Position numbers and translations under genes: made by a program. Shown one piece after another: positions 1,524 through 18,650 of a stretch of 19,550 nt of DNA. Position 1 is the stretch's first letter; every line of letters starts with the position of its first letter. A model generated the notes under the pieces. That model searched no databases. It saw only the letters and a list, made by a program, of their open reading frames with translations, and was not told where the DNA came from. The stretch is from the IMG/VR virus record IMGVR_UViG_2529292888_000015. One strand, given 5' to 3'. The stretch is from a virus. Its lineage: Duplodnaviria > Heunggongvirae > Uroviricota > Caudoviricetes.

Positions 1524-1937
1524 TTACTCACCAACAGCCCACCAACTGTAATTCATCGATACCGTGTCGCTGGTTGATGACGTTCTGTAAGCAGAATTAA
1601 AGCCGGTTAACGTTGGGCCTTCTGCAGTCATCACGAACCCTCGCCCAGCGCCTAAAGGCGCACCGCCATCACCAGAATGAGTAAGCATGGCGCAGTCCGC
1701 TTTTTTGGGGAAAGGGATGCTGAATGTAATTCTCATTGTTTGCGTCGATAATGTCGGCGTAACCGCACCACGACCATATTGCAGGATTTTCCCGTTGGGT
1801 AATTTCATCCATCCATTACCACTGGCAAAAGAGGCCATGTCCGGTATCTGATTTTCCCCTGTCCCCACATCCCGTTTTGCCGCTTCTCCCAAACCAACGT
1901 TTATGAAAATGCAGAAATAACGAGCAAATGGCATCAT
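1524..1937 (-). CDS. Alternative tail fibre C-terminal variable domain (orientation-B tip), probably silent in this orientation
   Basis: Begins in the right inverted repeat with the same N-terminal peptide as the + strand tip; contains a classic fibre-tip motif (GWMKLPNGKILQYG). The annotated Met is unlikely to be a real start; expression would require inversion. Confidence 0.55.
   Translation of the reverse strand: MMPFARYFCIFINVGLGEAAKRDVGTGENQIPDMASFASGNGWMKLPNGKILQYGRGAVTPTLSTQTMRITFSIPFPKKADCAMLTHSGDGGAPLGAGRGFVMTAEGPTLTGFNSAYRTSSTSDTVSMNYSWWAVGE
1883..1934. repeat. Right inverted repeat of the invertible segment
   Basis: Reverse complement of 1..52, ending 30 bp upstream of the invertase start codon. 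Confidence 0.8.
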
Positions 1938-1963
1938 TCCTGCTTTTGTCAGGGAGATCTACC

Positions 1964-2518
1964 ATGCTTATTGGCTATGTACGTGTGTCAACAAATGACC
2001 AGAACACAGATCTACAACGTAATGCGCTGAACTGTGCAGGATGCGAGCTGATTTTTGAAGACAAGATAAGCGGTACAAAGTCCGAAAGGCCGGGACTGAA
2101 AAAACTGCTCAGGACATTATCGGCAGGTGACACTCTGGTTGTCTGGAAACTGGATCGGCTGGGGCGCAGTATGCGGCATCTGGTCATTCTGGTTGAGGAG
2201 TTGCGCGAACGTGGCGTTAATTTTCGCAGCCTGACGGATGCTATTGATACCAGTACCCCAATGGGGCGCTTTTTCTTTCATGTGATGGGGGCCCTGGCTG
2301 AAATGGAACGAGAACTGATTGTTGAACGAACAAAAGCTGGACTGGAAGCTGCTCGCGCACAGGGACGAATTGGTGGACGTCGTCCCAAACTTACACCAGA
2401 ACAATGGGCGCAGGCCGGACGATTAATTGCAGCAGGAATTCCTCGCCAGAAGGTAGCGATCATCTATGATGTTGGTGTATCGACACTGTATAAGAAGTTT
2501 CCGGCCGGAGATAAATGA
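1964..2518 (+). CDS. pin: Serine recombinase / DNA invertase of the Pin/Gin/Hin/Cin family
   Basis: N-terminus MLIGYVRVSTNDQNTDLQRNAL carries the catalytic serine motif; VVWKLDRLGRS and C-terminal HTH (GIPRQKVAIIYDVGVSTLYKK); AGGGAG RBS at 1951..1956; start taken at the internal ATG at 1964 rather than the track's 1928. Confidence 0.92.
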   Translation: MLIGYVRVSTNDQNTDLQRNALNCAGCELIFEDKISGTKSERPGLKKLLRTLSAGDTLVVWKLDRLGRSMRHLVILVEELRERGVNFRSLTDAIDTSTPMGRFFFHVMGALAEMERELIVERTKAGLEAARAQGRIGGRRPKLTPEQWAQAGRLIAAGIPRQKVAIIYDVGVSTLYKKFPAGDK

Positions 2519-2575
2519 AACCGTAGCACGTCGTATGCAAGATCGTGCTGCGGTTTATGCTTACCACTTGAAGAT

Positions 2576-3445
<870 letters not shown>

Positions 3446-3528
3446 CTAACCCTTTGAATTTACATAGCGCAAAAAGATACCTTTCCTCATAATGTGAGCT
3501 AATTTTATGTTTCGTTTGATGATCGGGT

Positions 3529-3590
3529 CGGTCTCGAAAACCGGAGTAGGGGCAACTCTACCGGGGGTTCAAATCCCCCTCTCTCCGCCA
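3529..3590 (+). other. 3' fragment (~62 nt) of a tRNA-Ser(CGA) gene, from anticodon stem to CCA; presumed prophage att core duplicate
   Basis: cggtctcgaaaaccggagtaggggcaactctaccgggggttcaaatccccctctctccgcca matches the anticodon loop (CGA), long variable arm, T-arm and acceptor 3' strand of enterobacterial tRNA-Ser, recalled from memory. No matching 5' acceptor strand (GGAGAG...) upstream, so it is not a complete tRNA. Confidence 0.7.
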
Positions 3591-4172
3591 CTTTATCAAT
3601 GACTTATCTCCCGACTTCCCGCCTTGCTTTTCCTAAACAGAACAATCGTAGAATATTCTTGAAGGGTTAGATCGTCACTGTTTTCTGTTCGATACTGTGA
3701 CATTCAGCACTTGATTCGCTATGGATCTGACAGGAAGGTTTTGAGCGAAAATCTGCAGTTATTCAGTCGTTTTCTTATCGGTCACCATTATTCTTTTAGA
3801 CATTGATCCTACAAAGCTGCCGCAAAGTTGGTGGTGGGAACTGAAGTTGCGTAGAGAAGGGGTCAATACCCGGAGGCAAACATGGGCTGGCAAAAGTGTA
3901 GCGGTATTAGGCGCAGCTATTTAGCCTAGTTATGTTTTATGAAAACTTGATATCATATAAGTGTCTTACTTATTGGCTGTAAATAAGTTTTTCCTAAGGA
4001 ATTGTTTCTTGAGTATCATTTGTAACTGTAACGGAATTTATAATCCTTTGCTTTATTGTTACGGTATTTTTTATCACACCCTATTTTTAGTGGTTTTTTA
4101 TACTGAAGTTTGGCAAAGTGAACTTTATATACATATACTTCATCCTGGTTTCAGTTAAATTGGGGGGATGAT

Positions 4173-4916
4173 ATGGCAACTACATGTTCAGTTATATTGA
4201 TTTTGGAGTCCTTTGATGTTTATTTCGGAAAAGAGAGTGTGTTTCTGGAGAGAGGTTCATCTGTACTTGTCGACTCTAGCTCTAGAGATTTTTTCCTGAC
4301 ATATCCTGAAAGAGTGATAGTGGCGGATTTTGGCGCTGAGTTTATTAGTCGCTATTTGAAAGCTAATAACTTAAGGGATATTTCTGATTGTAGGGAATAT
4401 CCATCTTATTTAAAAATAAACTTTGCTGACTTCAGTTTAATTAAAGGATTAATTAGTTGGGCTAATCACTGTGCTGAATACATAGAAATTTTTGATGAGT
4501 CTATTGCTTTTACATGTCTCTCTGCATTTTCTTCTGAAAAACAATTTGGAGTATTTCTGTTTGGATGTTTGAAAAGCACAGGGGCTAAAGTTAAAACGAT
4601 TATTCATACGGATTTATCTGCACCATGGCGTCTTAAGGATATATCATCAAGATTATATCTCAGCGAAAGTTTACTAAAGAGGAAATTGAAAGAAGAGGGG
4701 GTATCATTCAGTAAGATCATACTTGATGAGAGGATGCAAATGGCTGAATATTTACTCAGCACTCGTTGTTATCCTATTAGTAAAGTAGCTAAGGTCTGTG
4801 GTTATGCCAGTGTCTCATACTTTACTTATGTATTTAGACGTTATTTTGGTGTTTCTCCAAGTCAATACTCTCAGAGGAGTTCAGAAAGTAAAATTCTTAC
4901 TCACCAGGGAATCTGA
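4173..4916 (+). CDS. AraC/XylS-family transcriptional regulator (AppY/EnvY/Rns-like small activator)
   Basis: 247 aa; C-terminal AraC-type double HTH (SKIILDERMQMAEYLLSTRCYPISKVAKVCGYASVSYFTYVFRRYFGVSPSQY); AT-rich gene with an extremely AT-rich upstream region. Confidence 0.85.
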   Translation: MATTCSVILILESFDVYFGKESVFLERGSSVLVDSSSRDFFLTYPERVIVADFGAEFISRYLKANNLRDISDCREYPSYLKINFADFSLIKGLISWANHCAEYIEIFDESIAFTCLSAFSSEKQFGVFLFGCLKSTGAKVKTIIHTDLSAPWRLKDISSRLYLSESLLKRKLKEEGVSFSKIILDERMQMAEYLLSTRCYPISKVAKVCGYASVSYFTYVFRRYFGVSPSQYSQRSSESKILTHQGI

Positions 4917-5400
4917 TCATTGTTCTTGCCCCCTTATTTCCAGACAGGGGGGGTATCTTAAGTTAACGTTACCCGCTGACGTCGATATTCTCGCGGAGAG
5001 CGATAACCCAACGCACTGTGCGGATGGTTTTCATTGTAATGTTCGATCGCCACTGCAAGATTATGCAATGCCGTTCTTACATTCGGTTTCGGCATGAACG
5101 CGATGTAGTCTTCCTTCATCGTTTTCACGAACCTTTCTGCAATTCCATTACTCTGAGGACTGCTGATTGCCGTTGTGCAGGGCTCCAGATTCAACTCTCT
5201 GGCGAACTGCCGTGTTTCATGCGCTCTATACGCTGAACCGTTATCTGTCAGCCACTGGATGGACTGTTCCGGTACTTTATCGCCAAAGCGTTTTTCTATC
5301 GCTCCTAACATGACATCCTGCACTGTCGCTTTATCGTAACCTCCCGTGCTTGCGGCCCAGTCTATGGCTTCACGATCGCAACAGTCCAGGGCGATTCATC
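4917..5400 (-). mobile_element. IS2-like (IS3 family) insertion sequence remnant: right terminal repeat plus the 3' part of the transposase gene
   Basis: 4920..4945 (ttgcccccttatttccagaca) resembles the IS2 terminal inverted repeat as recalled from memory; adjacent ORF encodes only the C-terminal DDE-domain portion of an IS3-family transposase. Upper boundary is approximate. Confidence 0.6.
4958..5323 (-). pseudogene. Truncated IS3-family (IS2 OrfB-like) transposase, C-terminal fragment only
   Basis: 121-aa ORF with [21 protein letters not shown]...[20 protein letters not shown]...[12 protein letters not shown], the C-terminal rve/DDE region; the ~180 N-terminal residues and orfA are absent. 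Confidence 0.7.
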
Positions 5401-5670
5401 TGGGCCAATCCTTGCTCATAACAGGCATTCACTTCAGTCATGGCAGAAAGGTATGCATGCTGGAGAAGTCGTGAAAGAAAAGAAGACTGCTGCGCCGTTT
5501 GTCGTCACGTTTATCTTCATTGGCTATGCAAGTCGTAATACAAGGTGGGACAAAACTGAGACACATAAGGCCTCGCAATGGCTTGCAAGGCTTTACATGT
5601 TTTGATGTGGTGGGACGTGTGAGCGCAGTGTTGATGGGGTAATGCTTTGAATTAGAAGCGGATTCTTATA

Positions 5671-5716
5671 ATTCGTAATGCGAAGGTCGTAGGTTCGACT
5701 CCTATTATCGGCACCA
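5671..5716 (+). other. 3' fragment (46 nt) of a tRNA-Thr(CGU) gene; left att site of the P4-like element
   Basis: attcgtaatgcgaaggtcgtaggttcgactcctattatcggcacca matches the anticodon loop to CCA end of enterobacterial tRNA-Thr (thrW-like), recalled from memory; the 5' half is missing. Integrase gene begins 163 bp downstream. Confidence 0.75.
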
Positions 5717-5878
5717 TCTCAACTTCCTCAAACGTCCGTATTAGTCCATAAAATCTCTGATTTATAACATTTTTTATTCTTTTAAGTCCATAGTAGTCCG
5801 TAACCATCCAGTAGAATCCGGTACTGAATGTGTATAGGATTGTGTATATGTTCCTGTTCGGTCTGGATTCCTATACAC

Positions 5879-7060
5879 ATGCCTTTAAACGATATGCAGA
5901 TTCGCCGCGCTAAGCCTGAAGCTAAAGCCTATACATTTGGAGATGGGCTAGGGTTGTCATTACTTATAGAACCTAATGGAAGCAAGAGTTGGCGGTTCCG
6001 CTATCGCTATGCCGGCAAACCCAAAATGATCTCGCTTGGTGTTTACCCAACGATCACCCTTGCCGATGCTCGTTCCCGTCGTGATGAAGCTCGAAAACTT
6101 GTGGCAGAAGGAAAGAACCCTAGTGAGGTTCGAAAAGAGCAAAAGCTAGCTATGCAAACAGAGTCAGAGAACGCCTTCGAAAAGATAGCCAGAGAGTGGC
6201 ATCAACTTAAATCTGCTAAATGGTCGGCGGGATATGCATCAGACATCATGGAAGCGTTTAAGAACGACATTTTTCCTTATGTCGGAACAAGGCCTGTGGG
6301 AGAGATTAAACCGCTAGAGCTGCTGAACGTTCTGCGTAAAATTGAGAAACGTGGTGCGTTGGAGAAAATGCGCAAAGTGCGGCAGCGTTGCTCCGAAGTG
6401 TTTCGCTACGCAATTGCAACGGGTAGGGCGGAGTACAATCCTGCGGCTGATCTCTCCAGCGCTCTCGAAGTACACCAATCCAATCATTTCCCATTCCTAA
6501 AAGCTGATGAGATACCTGATTTTCTACGTGCCTTAGAGGGTTACTCCGGGAGTAAGCTTGTCCAGATAGCCACGAAATTACTGATGATTACGGGTGTGAG
6601 AACCATCGAATTACGCGCGGCATTATGGCAAGAATTTGATCTGGATAACGCTATTTGGGAAATTCCTGCTGAAAGGATGAAAATGCGTAGGCCACATCTT
6701 GTGCCCTTATCATCTCAAGCGGTAGATTTACTCAATGAACTCAAGATCATGACAGGGAACTATCGTTATGTTTTTCCAGGGCGGAACGATCCGAATAGGC
6801 CAATGAGCGAAGCGAGTATAAATCAAGCCATTAAGCGTATTGGGTATGGAGGAAAAGTCACTGGACATGGTTTTCGTCATACCCTTTCTACAATCCTGCA
6901 TGAGCAAGGTTTTGAGAGTGCTTGGATTGAAATCCAGTTGGCTCATGTAGATAAAAATTCTATTAGGGGGACTTATAACCATGCTCAATATTTTAGTGGA
7001 AGGAAGTCTATGATGGACTGGTACAGTAATTTGATATTTGAAAGACTAAAAAGGAGTTAA
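5879..7060 (+). CDS. int: P4-type tyrosine integrase
   Basis: N-terminus MPLNDMQIRRAKPEAKAYTFGDGLGLSLLIEPNGSKSWRFRYRYAGK is the typical P4-integrase arm-binding start; catalytic HGFRHTLST (HxxR) and C-terminal RGTYNHAQY tyrosine. Start set at ATG 5879 rather than the track's 5828. Confidence 0.92.
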   Translation: MPLNDMQIRRAKPEAKAYTFGDGLGLSLLIEPNGSKSWRFRYRYAGKPKMISLGVYPTITLADARSRRDEARKLVAEGKNPSEVRKEQKLAMQTESENAFEKIAREWHQLKSAKWSAGYASDIMEAFKNDIFPYVGTRPVGEIKPLELLNVLRKIEKRGALEKMRKVRQRCSEVFRYAIATGRAEYNPAADLSSALEVHQSNHFPFLKADEIPDFLRALEGYSGSKLVQIATKLLMITGVRTIELRAALWQEFDLDNAIWEIPAERMKMRRPHLVPLSSQAVDLLNELKIMTGNYRYVFPGRNDPNRPMSEASINQAIKRIGYGGKVTGHGFRHTLSTILHEQGFESAWIEIQLAHVDKNSIRGTYNHAQYFSGRKSMMDWYSNLIFERLKRS

Positions 7061-7063
7061 TTT

Positions 7064-7480
7064 GTGTCTCAACCACTTTCGGAAATATTGACATGGGATG
7101 ATGAACAATGGGAGGTATTTGTCCATGATTGGCTTATTGTCTGTAAATCAGATGATTACCCGTGGAGCGAACGTTTGGGAGGAGCTGGAGATAAAGGTAG
7201 AGACGTTGTTGGATATAAATCGGATCCTAACGTAGAAGGTTATTCTTGGGATAATTATCAATGCAAACTGTACAAAAAAAGTTTAGGGTTCTCTGATGTT
7301 GTAGTTGAGTTTGGAAAACTTATCTATTTTACTCTGAATGGTGATTATCCCATCCCTCAGAAGTACTTTTTTGTGGCACCCTATGATTTATCTACTACAT
7401 TTTCTAATTTATTGAAAAATAAAAACGAGCTTAAAAAAGCAGTCCTTGATTCATGGGATTCAGCAATTTCAAAAAAATAA
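7064..7480 (+). CDS. Mrr-like PD-(D/E)xK restriction-endonuclease catalytic domain protein; probable N-terminal part of a frameshifted effector gene (LmuA-like)
   Basis: GTG start with AAAAAGGAG RBS overlapping the int stop. GDKGRDVVGY ... DNYQCKLYKK ... KYFFVAPYDLSTTF aligns with the Mrr_cat motif order (GDGGIDG ... VQAKR ... GVFITTSGFT). ORF ends at a TAA immediately after an A7 run. Confidence 0.6.
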   Translation: MSQPLSEILTWDDEQWEVFVHDWLIVCKSDDYPWSERLGGAGDKGRDVVGYKSDPNVEGYSWDNYQCKLYKKSLGFSDVVVEFGKLIYFTLNGDYPIPQKYFFVAPYDLSTTFSNLLKNKNELKKAVLDSWDSAISKK

Positions 7481-8070
7481 CTAAAAAGATTGATATTCCA
7501 TTAGATGATGAAATAAAAAAATATATTGAGGATTTTGATTTTAGTATTTTTTACTCTCTACCCTTATCATTGATTTTAAATGATATTGCAAATACACACC
7601 TTTATTTTAAGTACTTTAACGAGCTGTATGTCGTGAGAATCCCTCCAAATGAAATTCCAACATACAATTCAAAAAAAGAGTCTGTATATGTTAATGCACT
7701 GCTTCAAGCCTATTCAGAGCATGGAAATAAAACTTATAGTTCTTTCTTAGAGCTTGATGATCCATACAGACGACACTTTAATAATAGTAGAAATGATTTT
7801 TATTTTGCATCTTCGCTTGAGGTTTTTGTCCGCGAAGTATTTAAAGATGATGTATTCAAAGCATTGAAATGTTACATTTCATCTTCAATTGAACCCGTCT
7901 TTTATGAAGACCATAATTATGCATTTATTAGGTGTAATGCAGTCTTGAAGCAGGCTGTTCTGACACCAATTGCACATTCAGTACTATCAAAAATATGTGA
8001 AGCAAATGATAAAAAAGGAATATGCCATCATTTGGTTAATGATGGTGAAGTAATTTGGACGGTGAGATAA
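7453..8070 (+). CDS. Hypothetical protein; probable C-terminal part of the same effector gene, in a different frame
   Basis: Overlaps the previous ORF by 28 nt; one extra A in the 7471..7477 run would fuse the two into a ~335-aa protein. Stop overlaps the next start (TAATG at 8068..8072). Very AT-rich. Confidence 0.55.
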   Translation: MGFSNFKKITKKIDIPLDDEIKKYIEDFDFSIFYSLPLSLILNDIANTHLYFKYFNELYVVRIPPNEIPTYNSKKESVYVNALLQAYSEHGNKTYSSFLELDDPYRRHFNNSRNDFYFASSLEVFVREVFKDDVFKALKCYISSSIEPVFYEDHNYAFIRCNAVLKQAVLTPIAHSVLSKICEANDKKGICHHLVNDGEVIWTVR

Positions 8071-8528
8071 TGGTTAGAATTTATAATTCAAGTTTAGAAG
8101 TGGCATGTCGAATGGCGAAAGTGCTCGTCGCTATTTATCCTTCTTCATTAAGCCTTGAACGGCTTATTTGTTTTGATTTTATTTTAGTAAATCTTAAGGA
8201 TTTTTTACCTGAAGAGATTAGTCTTCATCCTCCAATACCCCGTAGAGATGCTCAGTTAGCCCTAAAACGAGAGATTGTTTTAGAATCATTGGCTTTGTTG
8301 CAAGGCTATGAACTAGCCTCAAAAATTTATACACATCGTGGTTTTGTATATAAAGCTTCTGAAAAAACATATGCATTTACAAATTCTCTACATAATGAAT
8401 ATGTTGCGCAGATGGAGCATAATATAAATTTGGTGGTTAAGTTATATAGTGATATTCCTGATGAGCAGTTGCAATCAATTATAAAAAATAAAATTGGCAA
8501 ATATGATATGGAATTTAATTATGAATGA
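8070..8528 (+). CDS. Small predicted alpha-helical protein (~152 aa), middle gene of the cargo operon (LmuC/DdmB-like position)
   Basis: ATG at 8070 coupled to the upstream stop; stop TGA at 8526..8528 overlaps the downstream ATG at 8521 (ATGAATGA). No recognisable catalytic motif. Confidence 0.6.
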   Translation: MVRIYNSSLEVACRMAKVLVAIYPSSLSLERLICFDFILVNLKDFLPEEISLHPPIPRRDAQLALKREIVLESLALLQGYELASKIYTHRGFVYKASEKTYAFTNSLHNEYVAQMEHNINLVVKLYSDIPDEQLQSIIKNKIGKYDMEFNYE

Positions 8529-9153
8529 CAATTTTTTTACGTTCAGAAAAATAAAGGTAACCGGATTCAATAAATTAGATGCTATAATTGAATTTGGTTC
8601 TAAATTGACTATTTTATATGGTGGTTCTGACTCTGGAAAAACATACATATATTATTTGATTCGATATTTATTAGGGAGTGAAAAACTAAAAAATAAAGAT
8701 ATCGATCATGCTCAAGGTTATGATTTAGCCTATCTGGAATTTAATTTTCAAGGTAGGGTAATGACAATTGAGAGGTCTCTTCAGGATAGCGCCCATTACA
8801 GATTATATGATTCGAGCATTGAAAATGTTAGTGAAGCTAATCTGTTGATGGTTTTTTCCAAAAGTGCTTCGTCTAAAAAGAGTTTTTCATCATACTTTTA
8901 TGGTAGGTTGAATTTCAAAGAGGCTAAAGTAAGAACAAACTTAAGTAATACTCTTCATAAATTTAATCTTAATAATGTTTTTGAATTTTTTTGTATTGAT
9001 GAATTAAGAGTGTTAACTGAGAAGTCGTTAATTCTTTCTGATATTCCTAGCGAGGAGACAAAAAGAAAGTCTGAATTTAAATTCCTTTTAACTCAGAGAG
9101 ATGATACTAACTCCTTAGCAGAAAAACCAAATAAAAAAGCAAGATATTTTTAA
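8521..9153 (+). CDS. SMC/Rad50/RecF-like ABC ATPase, N-terminal head with Walker A; apparently terminated by an in-frame TAA
   Basis: FRKIKVTGFNKLDAIIEFGSKLTILYGGSDSGKTYIYYLIRYLLG is the SMC_N/AAA_23-type N-terminal strand plus Walker A (GGSDSGKT). The next ORF is in the same frame, separated only by TAA 9151..9153. Confidence 0.65.
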   Translation: MNDNFFTFRKIKVTGFNKLDAIIEFGSKLTILYGGSDSGKTYIYYLIRYLLGSEKLKNKDIDHAQGYDLAYLEFNFQGRVMTIERSLQDSAHYRLYDSSIENVSEANLLMVFSKSASSKKSFSSYFYGRLNFKEAKVRTNLSNTLHKFNLNNVFEFFCIDELRVLTEKSLILSDIPSEETKRKSEFKFLLTQRDDTNSLAEKPNKKARYF

Positions 9154-9183
9154 AAAAATCAAATTGCAAATATTTATGAGGAA

Positions 9184-9774
9184 TTGAAAGCGCAATTAAT
9201 TTATCCTGAATATGATCAAGTCATTGTTTCAAGAGAACTTGAGAAAGTAGAGCAAGATATTGAATCATCGAAAGATATATTGAAAGGTATTGTTGATGCA
9301 CTTGATGATAAGAAGCAATTATTAAAAGAGTTAAGTGATGAATTATATTCAATCAGTGACAGGGAAAAATACTTATCATTACTCATTGAAAGATTTAGTC
9401 TTCTTAAAGACCAATACTTTATAGATCTACAAAGAATAGATGTTGTATCACAGGCGAATTTCTATTTAAATAATTTTGCAGATATTTATTGTGAGTTCTG
9501 TAATACACCGCAAAAAAAAGAAAATGAAATATCATATGATGATTGTTTTTTGTCGTGTAATGCAGAAAAATTGAAAATCAAAAGCCAGCTGAAAGGATTA
9601 ATTGAATCAATCGGATCTAATGTTCGCGAACATGAATTAATTATGTTAAGAAAAAATGATGTTAATGAAATTTATCAATCAGAAAAAAGTGATTTTAAGA
9701 CGTTAGAAGATAAAAATATAAAACAATACATTCATCTCTTGAATCACTTTATGAATATAAAGACAATCTTTTAA
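9184..9774 (+). CDS. Coiled-coil segment with a central CxxC (CEFC), probable middle part of the same SMC-like ATPase
   Basis: Charged heptad-like sequence (ELEKVEQDIESSKDILKGIVDALDDKKQLLKELSDEL...); no in-frame ATG start (track uses TTG at 9184); same frame as 8521..9153. Confidence 0.5.
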   Translation: MKAQLIYPEYDQVIVSRELEKVEQDIESSKDILKGIVDALDDKKQLLKELSDELYSISDREKYLSLLIERFSLLKDQYFIDLQRIDVVSQANFYLNNFADIYCEFCNTPQKKENEISYDDCFLSCNAEKLKIKSQLKGLIESIGSNVREHELIMLRKNDVNEIYQSEKSDFKTLEDKNIKQYIHLLNHFMNIKTIF

Positions 9775-10340
9775 TGGATCACACAAAACATAGCATTCTA
9801 TCTTCATTACAAGATAAAGAAGATGATGTTGACGAACTTAAATACTCCGCCGAGGACTTTGACTCCTTAACAGTAGCTGATTTGTATGATATAGAAATAG
9901 CGATGCAAGACTTTTTGAATGATATAAATTTTGAAAATTCTAAAGATAACAAAGTGCGATTTGACGAAGATACATATGACTTTAATATCAATGGGAAACG
10001 CCGAGGAATGTTTGGTAAAGGTACCCGTGCAGTAATGCATGCTATATTTACCATTTGCTTTGCGGAATTTTTATCAAGAAAAGGGAATCCATTCATTGGA
10101 TTTGTTGTGCTTGATAGTCCATTAGTGACGCACTTTGATAAAGATAGAGGGGGTTCTCTATCGGATGTTAATAGCGTCAGTCTCAGTGATTCATTTTATC
10201 ACGCATTAATCAAAAGGGACTATAATTTCCAGATTGTAATTCTTGAGAATAAAGGTCCGACGTTCCAAATAAAAATTAATGATGCAAATAAAATCCATAA
10301 CTTAAATAAGAATGGAAGCTCTGGTTTTTATCCTGTTTAA
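9774..10340 (+). CDS. C-terminal head of an SMC-like ABC ATPase (signature-like and Walker B-like motifs, both non-canonical)
   Basis: GMFGKGTRAVMHAIFTICFAEFL ... FIGFVVLDSPL ... FQIVILEN occupy the positions of the signature, Walker B and H-loop of SMC-type heads but are degenerate (DS instead of DE). Start overlaps the upstream stop (TAATG); one extra A in the runs at 9712..9723 would fuse it to the preceding ORF. Confidence 0.55.
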   Translation: MDHTKHSILSSLQDKEDDVDELKYSAEDFDSLTVADLYDIEIAMQDFLNDINFENSKDNKVRFDEDTYDFNINGKRRGMFGKGTRAVMHAIFTICFAEFLSRKGNPFIGFVVLDSPLVTHFDKDRGGSLSDVNSVSLSDSFYHALIKRDYNFQIVILENKGPTFQIKINDANKIHNLNKNGSSGFYPV

Positions 10341-13522: not shown

Positions 13523-13881
13523 TGATACCTGCATACATTAAATACCTTTATTCTGGCTTGCTTACTGTCGTCATTTCCAGGTATAGTTTTTCCGCTGTCG
13601 CAAAATCGGCAGCCGGAATTGGCGTTCCGTATAACTTATTGGCGACAATTGACGCCCCTTGCGTCTTTTTTTACGTCGTAGCTCAGGCACAACCATTTTC
13701 AGGGCTGTGGTGTTTATGCTTACACCATGGTTCTATCGAGATAATGGTAGTCCGGGCGGGGCAGCCTTCGGGCTGGCCGGTTTCCAATAAGGCCGGTTAC
13801 GCCAACCCCGTTCGGGCTGCCACCAGTGAAATTGGCGTTTCCGGTGGTAGCAATAACCGCTACTTATTGGAGGCTGCCATC

Positions 13882-17018: not shown

Positions 17019-17975
17019 TTATTTTTGAATTGATTTAAACATCCCATCGAGTTGTAATTTATTTATGTCGGTTTTCTTTATGGCTTTAATTAAGTTTTCA
17101 ATAACTTCCAAAGAAAAAATTACATCTTTCTTTTCAATTCTAACCCCCCCGTGGTGGCTGCAAGCATTAAGGATGTCCTTTGTAATTTCAACATCATTTT
17201 TCATTAATGGTTCATAGTCCAGAGCCTCAATAACAGAAACTAAACTACCTAGCATTTGCTCTTGGTATTGAACGTTGTTTAAATGCATTATACGAATATT
17301 AACAAGCATGAGAATATATTCTAAATATCTCCTGGCAGTATTTCCTTTCTCTTGTAAAGAATCACGATCATATTCCTCAATACTCATGACTTCATTATGT
17401 AAAGAGGCTATTTTGTGCTCTGCTAATGAAATATTTATCGCATCCATGAGGTTTCGTGAGAAGCCTGTAGATGTAACATGACCATTTGCGGGCCTTGTTA
17501 AAATACATGTAGTATAGCAATTTATATTTGGGGTCTGGATTGTCTCATTTACTCTTTTAACCGTTCTATAAACGTCTACCATATAAGAACCTGAGTTTTC
17601 AAATGAACATGAAGAGCATTTTGTATTATATATTCTATTTAGAGATAACTGATTGTGATAGTATCCCTTTAAGAAAGCATATATAGTGTCATTAAACTCG
17701 ACAAACACAACGGACTCAATATATATATGGAATTTATCATTGGGGTGCCACTCTAATTCAAGTCTTCTTGTAGAGTCATCAAAGGAAAAGTTTGAAATAA
17801 AATCCCAGTTACCTAAATCTATAAAATCAACGATATTTCTACCTGCACCATGGATATTTTTATTTATTAAAGTTGTGATTGAGTTTTTTATAATGTCCCA
17901 ATCATGAATTTCATGATCGAATTTATTATTGATGGTTTCTTTTATTTGATTGGAAAAGTTTGAATAACTAGTCAC
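17019..17975 (-). CDS. Hypothetical protein (318 aa), AT-rich cargo gene between primase and attR; function unknown
   Basis: Long uninterrupted ORF in a very AT-rich block flanked by AT-rich non-coding DNA (16920..17018 and 17976..18505); no motif recognisable by eye. Confidence 0.6.
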   Translation of the reverse strand: MTSYSNFSNQIKETINNKFDHEIHDWDIIKNSITTLINKNIHGAGRNIVDFIDLGNWDFISNFSFDDSTRRLELEWHPNDKFHIYIESVVFVEFNDTIYAFLKGYYHNQLSLNRIYNTKCSSCSFENSGSYMVDVYRTVKRVNETIQTPNINCYTTCILTRPANGHVTSTGFSRNLMDAINISLAEHKIASLHNEVMSIEEYDRDSLQEKGNTARRYLEYILMLVNIRIMHLNNVQYQEQMLGSLVSVIEALDYEPLMKNDVEITKDILNACSHHGGVRIEKKDVIFSLEVIENLIKAIKKTDINKLQLDGMFKSIQK

Positions 17976-18505: not shown

Positions 18506-18524
18506 GGTTCCTATTATCGCACCA
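18506..18524 (+). repeat. Degenerate direct repeat of the tRNA-Thr 3' end; candidate attR of the P4-like element
   Basis: ggttcctattatcgcacca versus ggttcgactcctattatcggcacca at 5692..5716: shared ggttc, cctattatcg and cacca in order, with two small gaps. Confidence 0.45.
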
Positions 18525-18650
18525 TTTAAATCAAGTAGTTACCCCATATTTAAATACACCACGTTTCCTCCTGTGCCGCATTTGTGCCATTGTAACCCTG
18601 GCAATTAATCAAAATACTGTTCTGACATCAGGCAATGCAGGTGCAGACAT

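Follow-up and report, generated by a model that had tools for sequence, protein, structure and literature searches.

The closest described relatives of the locus studied here are the prophages Sp1 and Sp2 (CP-933H/I) at thrW in Escherichia coli O157 and the element CP4-6 at thrW in K-12. In both arrangements, an intact tRNA gene stands at one end, its 3' part recurs as a direct repeat at every junction, and each unit has its own integrase. The att core of P22 spans 46 bp, and 46 nt is also the length of the stretch that thrW shares with the attP of P22/Sf-type phages. Integration of an incoming phage into the attR of a resident prophage has been documented for Sp10 and Rac (PMC2669165). Further parallels are offered by the specialised transducing phages lambda-gal and lambda-bio, which through imprecise excision carry host DNA from beside att, so that an attR-type junction made up of P arm, core and B' runs directly into host DNA where the right end of the prophage is expected. 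The morons of lambdoid phages, including those for the AraC-like regulators PatE, PsrA and PsrB of EHEC, provide another model, that of an AT-rich, separately acquired regulator gene in b-region position.

The window, i.e. the whole stretch of 19,550 nt analysed here, comes from E. coli O157:H7 (Sakai-type) and spans the annotated prophages Sp1 and Sp2. It contains pieces of two tRNA genes, both of which are ordinary scars of phage integration. We are fairly confident that these scars have two distinct histories, the thrW piece being an att site of the Sp1/Sp2 array and the serU piece a fossil attR that was carried along as phage cargo.

Two incomplete tRNA genes in the window

The first piece, that of a tRNA-Ser(CGA) gene, occupies 3529..3590 on the + strand and corresponds exactly to nt 29-90 of the 90-nt serU gene of K-12, from the anticodon stem to the CCA end. 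The second, that of a tRNA-Thr(CGU) gene, starts 2,142 nt further on the same strand (5671..5716, +) and is an exact copy of nt 31-76 of the 76-nt thrW gene, a 46-nt match reproduced by chance in none of 100 shuffles. Continuity with the tRNA gene breaks directly upstream of each piece, and the missing 5' parts, 28 nt for serU and 30 nt for thrW, are absent from the window. ARAGORN predicted no tRNA gene in the window, and an Rfam search of the same sequence gave no tRNA match above threshold. The first-pass annotation had described two incomplete tRNA 3' fragments in the same orientation, and this description holds. Intact copies of both genes are found elsewhere in the genome: serU at 2.71 Mb, 2.4 Mb away, where the site is occupied by Sp14, and thrW 10,586 bp upstream of the exact 46-nt repeat (L001 8756-8831, outside the window).

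Between the two pieces, only an orphan AraC regulator and an IS remnant had been noticed. Both are indeed there (4173-4916 and 4921-5394, respectively), but three components had been overlooked, namely a 278-bp serU flank (3591-3868), a 56-bp scrap of an IS630-family element (3869-3924) and a thrW-type attP arm of about 260 bp (5411-5670).

The thrW piece and the tandem array of Sp1 and Sp2

The elements of the array are ordered as follows: proA, intact thrW, Sp1, the 46-nt thrW copy, Sp2, a degenerate copy and yagP. In the Sakai record, Sp1 extends over 300042-310627 and Sp2 over 310628-323514, and the thrW piece coincides with their boundary. Of the att sites in the array it is the middle one, at which the attR of Sp1 and the attL of Sp2 are one and the same. 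The proposal that it marks the start of a satellite was correct, as it sits exactly where two independently acquired elements meet. Compared with the attP of P22/Sf-type phages, it is a hybrid site composed of the P arm of Sp1, the core and the Sp2 arm.

By sequence comparison, Sp1 ends on the right with a P arm (5411..5670, +) from the attP of a phage specific for thrW. This arm shares 94.9% identity with its attR counterpart in the thrW prophage of KW21, positions 5546-5717 match what is presumed to be the attP region of Shigella phage SfIV at 98.3% identity, and phage phi458 matches the thrW-type attP region at the right end of Sp1 at 87.6% identity. Sp1 itself is a degraded prophage annotated as lambda-like, with an intD-type integrase pseudogene that adjoins thrW, outside the window. 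On the other side of the thrW piece, positions 5717..7060 (+) comprise the Sp2 left arm and the gene for a tyrosine integrase of the P4 type. The integrase (ORF 5828-7060, annotated start 5879, intS) begins about 110 nt downstream of the thrW piece and contains the Pfam domains Arm-DNA-bind_3, Phage_int_M and Phage_integrase. Sp2 has the attributes of a P4-like satellite, with a P4-type integrase, psu/delta/sid, an alpha primase and a C4-type immunity RNA, according to the Sakai annotation ('prophage Sp2, P4-like phage') and Rfam. At 13581-13827, C4 scores 84 bits and isrK 71.9 bits in Rfam, both above the gathering score, and c4-a1b1 reaches 44.6 bits, slightly under its gathering score of 46.7.

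A third copy of the thrW 3' part, ggttcctattatcgcacca (18506..18524, +), lies at the right end of Sp2 and is degenerate, being 19 nt long with two indels. Owing to these indels, it was missed by a search allowing up to 3 mismatches and was found by repeat extension and reading of the sequence. The host flank toward yagP starts at 18525. In K-12, CP4-6 terminates at the corresponding end with a perfect 46-nt thrW copy, after which this same flank begins; apart from the degenerate outermost copy and the pseudogene state of the Sp1 integrase, nothing essential differs between the O157 and K-12 arrays. Tandem arrays with a terminal P4-like element also occur in other lineages. Here, the intact tRNA gene at one end, the internal and distal repeats, the integrase in each unit and the uninterrupted empty site in other genomes are those of a tandem array, in which the second element would have integrated into the att site that the first one had made at thrW. 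Arrival of Sp1 before Sp2 and the reverse order would leave identical junctions. This part of the locus is textbook material that is already annotated and holds nothing new.

The empty site, proA-thrW-yagP, is present in only 948 of 5,426 complete genomes, counting those in which at least 80% of the reconstructed site is covered (best coverage 100% at 99% identity); thrW is a busy site, and relative to these island-free genomes the region is interrupted. In them, thrW is joined straight to the flank that starts at position 18525 of the window. Because of this direct junction, no local host DNA has been lost, and the whole 2.1 kb belongs to Sp1. This result contradicts the earlier proposal that IS activity may have deleted intervening host DNA. 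It also bears on the broader idea of a composite hotspot, in which serU and thrW sites would have lain side by side before the DNA separating them was removed. The shared orientation of the two tRNA 3' pieces and the IS scraps that separate them do fit such a scenario, but we consider it extremely improbable: nothing local is missing, the intact serU of the same genome has its own attR and flank, and all of 3528-5394 is found in lambda-like phages and in att-lambda prophages. The notion of an integration hotspot is valid for thrW but not for serU, which is no integration site at this place.

The serU piece is a displaced attR

What precedes the serU piece is the right-hand end of a contractile-tailed, SfV/e14-like prophage (1836..3528; Sakai annotation and homology). 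This block encodes the pin invertase (1964-2518, +; Sakai annotation) and the GIY-YIG protein ECs_0285 (2576-3349, -; Pfam LEM-3_GIY-YIG; PADLOC PD-T4-3, E 2.3e-140) and ends with a non-coding arm (~3350-3528) that abuts the serU core. Positions 1836-3868 of the window are 96.0% identical to a complete prophage integrated at serU in MB15, which ends at the serU attR. The pin/GIY-YIG block also resembles the thrW prophage of KW21 (97.4% identity) and the ssrA prophage of CE10 (94%), in both cases only up to 3543. A by-eye resemblance between the phage arm of the window and that of Sp14 was noted as well, a matter for which MB15 and the prophage SerU-LTIIb provide better evidence.

Identity to serU starts at 3529 and identity to the ev099-type phages described below at 3528, and the match to the module-free relatives KW21 and CE10 ends at 3543. 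The three homologies overlap on the 15-nt anticodon stem-loop of serU, CGGTCTCGAAAACCG (3529..3543, +), which, from these alignments, probably represents the att core or the region of crossover. The variable arm of the serU piece is of the host type, GTAGGGGCAACTCTAC, as opposed to the phage-supplied copy at the attL of Sp14, GTGGGGGCAACTCCAC. Downstream of the piece comes a captured segment of the serU-yodB chromosomal spacer, 278 bp long and directed toward yodB/zinT (3591..3868, +). Its identity to that spacer is 96.5-98.6%, and it has a match in 5,423 of the 5,426 E. coli genomes. A non-chromosomal origin of this segment is contradicted by the data on serU loci.

A phage arm followed by the core and the host-type tRNA 3' half is the junction expected for the attR of a serU prophage, and it is in place at serU in 7 genomes, such as MB15, in which it runs on into yodB. 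In the window, the flank does not reach yodB but stops after 278 bp at the IS630 scrap. The serU piece is a translocated, truncated attR and not an integration site at the thrW locus. The first-pass annotation had it end the prophage module. This is right in so far as the piece ends the ancestral pin/GIY-YIG block, as at the serU attR of MB15, but it now lies inside a 1.87-kb module carried by phages.

One may ask whether the serU piece is nevertheless a working attachment site, either as the attP of the ancestor of Sp1 or of ev099-type phages, or as a live secondary att site. The attP of a phage that targets a tRNA gene contains the 3' half of that tRNA, as illustrated by Sp14 at serU, and the serU piece of the window has kept the core and a B'-type arm; in addition, the Sp14 integrase is annotated as intact, and Sp14 circularises (PMC2669165). 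We find this very unlikely all the same, given that a host-type variable arm followed by 278 bp of host spacer represents the P-O-B' architecture of an attR and not that of an attP. Furthermore, the lambda core adjoins int in ev099, the RM10410 prophage sits at att-lambda, Sp1 resides at thrW, its arm being of the thrW type and its integrase gene a pseudogene, and a serU-type integrase is absent nearby.

A 1.87-kb module carried as phage cargo

The module (3528-5394) comprises the serU piece with its flank, the IS630 scrap, the AraC gene and an IS3 remnant. It is 98.9-99.4% identical in the lambda-like phage genomes ev099, mEp332 and PhiR70_1, in which it lies between tfa, of the tail-fibre genes, and int/attP. 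In ev099, the lambda attP core is found 2.4 kb beyond the module, next to int. The metadata of the respective records indicate a virion origin for ev099 (ICTV-classified), mEp332 and PhiR70_1, and on that basis host DNA beside an att site is present inside packaged phage genomes. The hosts listed for mEp332 and PhiR70_1 are K-12 MG1655 and E. coli C, neither of which is expected to supply the module. It is also found in att-lambda prophages, e.g. that of RM10410, and in 36 IMG/VR loci, and roughly 546 genomes contain it. In today's carriers, the att-int module is complete and has a different specificity. The arm of ev099-type phages and the attR arm of the prophage SerU-LTIIb share 91.6% identity.

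Across all carriers, the module is 98.5-99.8% identical, versus 93-98% for the flanking phage backbone. Its right boundary depends on the carrier and falls at 5168/5171, 5394 or 5410; identity to ev099, RM10410 and related carriers stops at 5394, the right end of the IS3 remnant. This variability implies further rearrangement, which counts against the simplest form of the history that we favour. The presumed donor arrangement, in which the IS630 scrap and the AraC gene would lie downstream of an intact serU at the serU locus, was found in 0 of 5,426 genomes with a chimeric query.

Could the serU piece have been copied within O157, by recombination or rearrangement between Sp14, resident at serU, and Sp1? 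Sp14 is a lambda-like prophage whose core boundary is the same, identity beginning at serU nt 30, and recombination between prophages has been documented in this strain (PMC2669165). Yet positions 3529-3868 are only 97.3% identical to the Sp14 attR copy of O157 itself (9 mismatches in 337 nt), as against 99.1-99.7% to the phage-borne copies, with 1-3 mismatches to copies of phages or other lineages. In addition, Sp14 has a different phage arm to the left of the core, and the same arrangement occurs in many non-O157 prophages with backbone identities of 93-98%. Such a local copy is hardly credible, and the origin of the serU piece as imported cargo is retained below.

IS remnants and the AraC-family regulator

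The captured host flank ends with ...CAATA, i.e. at a TA, against the IS630 scrap, as seen in boundary alignments with K-12 and MB15. The dinucleotide TA is the target of IS630-family elements. The scrap (3869..3924) is an ISEc33-like end whose 56 bp are 93-98% identical to annotated IS630-family transposase genes. IS activity is visible only as this cut of the imported flank, at TA. At the other end of the module lies a 5'-truncated, ISEc48-like remnant of an IS3-family element (4921..5394, -), annotated in Sakai as repeat_region 'ISEc48 Family: IS3 partial', with rve_3 and rve domains in ORF 4958-5323.

Between these IS remnants, an AT-rich upstream region precedes the gene for an AraC-family regulator, ECs_0287 (3925..4916, +; Pfam HTH_AraC and HTH_18). 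The ORF (4173-4916) codes for 247 aa and has a GC content of 35%, with 29% for the upstream region. ECs_0287 is the sole AraC-family ORF of Sp1. Z0321 has been described as a 'putative regulator (prophage CP-933H)' of O-island 8 (PMC2907692), and PatE is the AraC-type product of z0321 (PMC10877973). From these descriptions of prophage and family, ECs_0287 is probably PatE. PatE was reported to activate the acid-resistance genes gadE and hdeA and to lower LEE expression (PMC10877973), and is reported to tune acid resistance and type III secretion in EHEC. A search of GTDB with one genome per species confirmed no close relatives of the protein in other species, and no donor outside E. coli was identified.

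In its AT-richness, separate acquisition and b-region position, this regulator gene is like the lambdoid morons, but unlike them it forms one physical unit with IS scraps and a fossil att junction, in which its assembly is recorded. Our literature search yielded no mention of such a linkage, and nothing relevant that ties serU to PatE or imprecise excision to morons.

Proposed capture and spread of the module

The following history probably accounts for these observations. A prophage ending with the pin/GIY-YIG block would once have occupied serU, as it does today in MB15. The phage arm, the 15-nt core, the host serU 3' half and the adjoining 278 bp of chromosome would then have been taken into a phage genome, and an IS630-family element would have cut the host flank at TA. 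The fossil junction would have ended up beside the AT-rich AraC gene and the IS3 remnant, forming a cargo module between the end of the tail-fibre genes and the working attP. From this single origin, the module would have recombined into two unrelated backbones, that of lambda-like siphoviruses integrating at att-lambda and that of SfV/e14-like prophages at thrW, and Sp1 would have delivered it to the thrW locus.

Capture of the host flank by imprecise excision, as for lambda-bio, followed by recombinational spread is most likely. As in lambda-gal and lambda-bio, host DNA contiguous with an attR-type junction is found in phage genomes where the prophage right end is expected. Unlike in those phages, only a short remainder of host DNA is left, bounded by an IS scrap, and the capture is deduced from present-day sequences. 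Since the attP and int at work in the carriers are different ones, later recombination must have restored their ability to integrate.

Two findings sit uneasily with this scheme. The module-free prophages of KW21 and CE10 have 15-17 nt of anticodon-arm sequence after the GIY-YIG gene and then non-serU sequence. Moreover, two distinct, authentic serU-type phage arms are joined to one and the same module. As a single imprecise excision cannot give two such arms, either an exchange at a later time or another capture has to be assumed.

It is conceivable, though we lean against it, that the module entered the pin/GIY-YIG backbone secondarily instead of having been captured by the pin/GIY-YIG phage. 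This might have happened by homologous recombination over the 340 bp of serU plus flank, between a resident serU prophage and an incoming lambda-like phage carrying the module, or by integrase-mediated exchange at the 15-nt core. Several observations point in this direction: the ev099-type carriers have kept the longest IS3 side, the module is more uniform than the backbones, the boundary between the two backbone types is exactly at the core, and both phage arms are authentic serU arms. The same boundaries would nevertheless be expected from independent captures off a common donor chromosome.

Whatever the route, the serU part of the locus is a clear natural record of how a cargo module was assembled: an att junction with host flank was cut by an IS and linked to a regulator, probably PatE. 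The module is common, at 99% identity, to lambda-like phages and to SfV/e14-like prophages that occupy different places in the chromosome. The long-standing idea that such cargo genes arise through imprecise excision and subsequent recombination thereby gains support at the level of sequence. It also holds a warning for annotation, as a tRNA fragment within a prophage need not be a prophage boundary.

It is tempting to speculate that the fossil serU attR is not inert, and that integrases specific for serine tRNA, that of Sp14 among them, use fossil sites of this kind to exchange cassettes of cargo between phages of unrelated backbone. We regard this as rather unlikely. If true, a live fossil serU attR would offer a site-specific route for the spread of cargo genes such as the acid-resistance regulator patE. 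The fossil has indeed retained the 15-nt core and the B'-type arm, and the module joins the two serU-type arms exactly at the core.

The serU and thrW fragments

About 320 complete Escherichia coli genomes, mostly O157:H7, match window positions 3300-6000 at approximately 100% identity. On the Sakai chromosome (NC_002695.2, position = window position + 304,928), the annotated prophages are Sp1, a 'lambda-like phage' (300042-310627), and Sp2, a 'P4-like phage' (310628-323514), with an intact thrW gene (299983-300058) lying outside the window, 4.9 kb left of its start. The first-pass annotation had described two tRNA 3' fragments, and both are indeed fragments. On the plus strand, positions 3529-3590 are identical to nt 29-90 of serU, tRNA-Ser(CGA), and positions 5671-5716 to nt 31-76 of thrW, tRNA-Thr(CGU). 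The tRNA sequence does not continue directly upstream of either one, and neither ARAGORN (no tRNA gene) nor Rfam (no tRNA above threshold) found a tRNA in the window. The exact 46-nt repeat is not a chance match, as it arose in 0 of 100 shuffles. Annotation and domain searches place an AraC ORF (4173-4916) and an IS3-family remnant (4921-5394) between the two fragments.

The serU fragment is a displaced attR

Identity to the serU locus runs past the CCA end of the fragment, and positions 3591-3868 are 96.5-98.6% identical to the serU-yodB/zinT spacer present in nearly every E. coli genome. Sakai's own serU is intact at 2.712 Mb and is occupied by the lambda-like prophage Sp14. At the attL of Sp14 (serU at L015 3173-3262), the phage provides the 3' half of the tRNA, in which two compensating substitutions alter the variable arm (GTGGGGGCAACTCCAC in the functional Sakai serU versus GTAGGGGCAACTCTAC in the host version), while the attR (L011, about 8135-8205) keeps the host version. 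The Sp14 crossover accordingly falls within the anticodon arm, before the variable arm. The window copy has both the host-version variable arm and the host flank, which is the architecture of an attR, not of an attP.

Using a chimeric query, composed of the type-A phage arm of the window, the serU fragment and its flank joined to the K-12 spacer beyond, we found seven genomes with at least 80% coverage, and full coverage in at least two of them (MB15 and RMDEC332). In MB15, a complete SfV/e14-like prophage ends at the same junction, which continues into yodB, indicating that the window junction is a genuine serU attR that has moved. As for its source, the sequence was imported and not copied within O157: against the attR copy of O157 itself, the fragment and its flank show 9 differences in 337 positions, versus 1-3 against the copies of other carriers. 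The view that the fragment marks a local integration site therefore does not hold, as serU is intact elsewhere and the fragment rides in a mobile module.

A mobile module shared by lambda-like phages

This module (3528-5394) comprises the serU fragment, the 278-bp host flank, a 56-bp IS630-family scrap, the AraC gene and the IS3 remnant, and the phages ev099, mEp332 and PhiR70_1 carry it in their genomes at 98.9-99.4% identity. In ev099, it lies between a tail-fibre assembly gene and int/xis, with the lambda attP core GCTTTTTTATACTAA 2.4 kb beyond it, adjoining int. Prophages at att-lambda carry the same module at their right end, and it is present in 36 IMG/VR prophage loci. Its left neighbours are of two kinds, namely the pin/GIY-YIG end, as in the window (type A), and a lambda-like backbone (type B), the arm of which shares 91.6% identity with the attR arm of the serU prophage 'SerU-LTIIb'. 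Across all carriers, the module is 98.5-99.8% identical versus 93-98% for the adjacent type-A backbone, and this greater uniformity points to a single origin followed by spread.

The host flank stops at ...CAATA, a TA dinucleotide at which the IS630-family scrap starts; TA is the usual target of IS630-family elements. At the left boundary, homology to module-free relatives (KW21 at thrW and CE10 at ssrA) ends at 3543, and homology starts at 3529 for serU and at 3528 for type-B carriers. The three homologies overlap over the 15-nt anticodon stem-loop CGGTCTCGAAAACCG, which, together with the position of the Sp14 crossover, makes this motif the likely att core. The right end of the module varies among carriers (5168/5171, 5394 or 5410), indicating that the IS3 side was remodelled repeatedly. 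In two O157:H7 strains, ATCC 43890 and GTVSS-023 (NZ_CP045863.1 and NZ_CP176687.1), the match to 3300-6000 is split in two pieces by an IS1203 (IS3-like) insertion, so the region is still under remodelling by IS elements. In the att-lambda prophage of strain 104, an IS1 lies immediately upstream of the AraC gene.

The module-free prophages of strains KW21 (L014 7630-7660) and CE10 (L013 7630-7660) harbour 15-24 nt of serU-like anticodon-arm sequence directly after the GIY-YIG gene, then about 20 common nt (TAGSCACGT..TATGC) and unrelated DNA. This stretch may be what remains of an attP of the serU type, in phages now at thrW or ssrA.

The AraC ORF has AraC-type HTH domains and a GC content of 35%, and it is the only ORF of that family in Sp1. 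EDL933 Z0321 was described as a putative regulator of prophage CP-933H in O-island 8 (PMC2907692), and z0321 encodes PatE, which activates acid-resistance genes and negatively regulates LEE genes (PMC10877973). Given these descriptions, the AraC ORF is presumably PatE.

Proposed history of the module

The most likely history would be capture, trimming and spread by recombination. A prophage in serU would have departed with its attR and adjoining host DNA, much as lambda-bio-type transducing phages form. An IS630-family element and deletions might then have cut the flank to 278 bp, bringing it together with the AT-rich AraC gene and an IS3 remnant. Finally, the module would have come to lie upstream of other att-int modules, and passed between backbones, by recombination. 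The donor arrangement was not found in the 5,426 genomes searched, nor in other species. Types A and B may each have captured the module on their own, or one may have obtained it from the other. For such an exchange, homologous recombination over the 340 bp of shared serU-plus-flank sequence would fit the data, as would integrase action at the core. A fossil attR with captured host flank is an instance of a well-known process; its linkage to the probable patE appears to be undescribed in the literature searched.

A tandem array at thrW

At thrW, the intact gene is followed 10,586 bp downstream by the exact 46-nt copy, and then by a third, degenerate copy (ggttcctattatcgcacca, 18506-18524) with a flank leading to yagP. 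In K-12, the right end of CP4-6 bears a perfect 46-nt copy followed by this same flank. The empty site rebuilt from proA, thrW and the sequence from 18525 onwards is 100% covered at 99% identity, and its coverage reaches 80% or more in 948 of the 5,426 genomes. Sp1 and Sp2 thus represent a clean 23.5-kb insertion with no local host DNA missing. The proposed IS-driven loss of host DNA between the fragments is contradicted by this complete empty site, the whole 2.1 kb being Sp1 DNA, most of it the cargo module that phage genomes in the database also carry. A 16-nt filler, TTCATCTGGGCCAATC (5395-5410), which matches neither neighbour, separates the shared end of the IS3 remnant from the start of the KW21-like thrW attP arm.

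Positions 5546-5717, which end just past the thrW fragment (172 nt), share 98.3% identity with the presumed attP region of the Shigella phage SfIV, and positions 5411-5717 are 94.9% identical to the attR of the related thrW prophage of strain KW21. As the P4-type integrase of Sp2 starts to the right, at 5828, the thrW fragment is the hybrid middle site of the array, composed of the Sp1 arm, the core and the Sp2 arm. It does start the satellite, as first proposed, and the junction of independently acquired elements is real, with Sp1 and Sp2 meeting there. Unrelated strains hold similar arrays with a P4-like element at the end; such an array is known biology and was already annotated. According to Asadulghani et al. 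(PMC2669165), Sp1 and Sp2 neither excise nor replicate, and they are not packaged.

Defence and RNA genes in the vicinity

The GIY-YIG ORF ECs_0285 (2576-3349, minus strand), listed as hypothetical in the annotation, lies at the extreme end of the prophage, adjoining the att junction. It has a full-length match (E 2.3e-140) to PD-T4-3, a PADLOC model for single-gene anti-phage defence, as well as a match to Pfam LEM-3_GIY-YIG. It is found in about 850 of the 5,426 genomes, within prophages at serU, thrW and ssrA. Pfam and PADLOC gave no match for ECs_0304 (318 aa; 17019-17975, minus strand), the ORF located at the right end of Sp2. Next to its integrase, Sp2 carries as cargo a Lamassu defence system in decay (7064-10340, plus strand): LmuC is intact, while LmuA is broken into two ORFs and LmuB into three, where the Sakai record has an AAA ATPase pseudogene. 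Reverse-transcriptase genes take its place in related P4-like elements at this site. The RNA immunity region of Sp2, which is of the P4 type, lies at 13581-13827 (plus strand), with Rfam matches to C4 antisense RNA (84 bits) and isrK (71.9 bits), and a c4-a1b1 target at 44.6 bits, just under the gathering score of 46.7.
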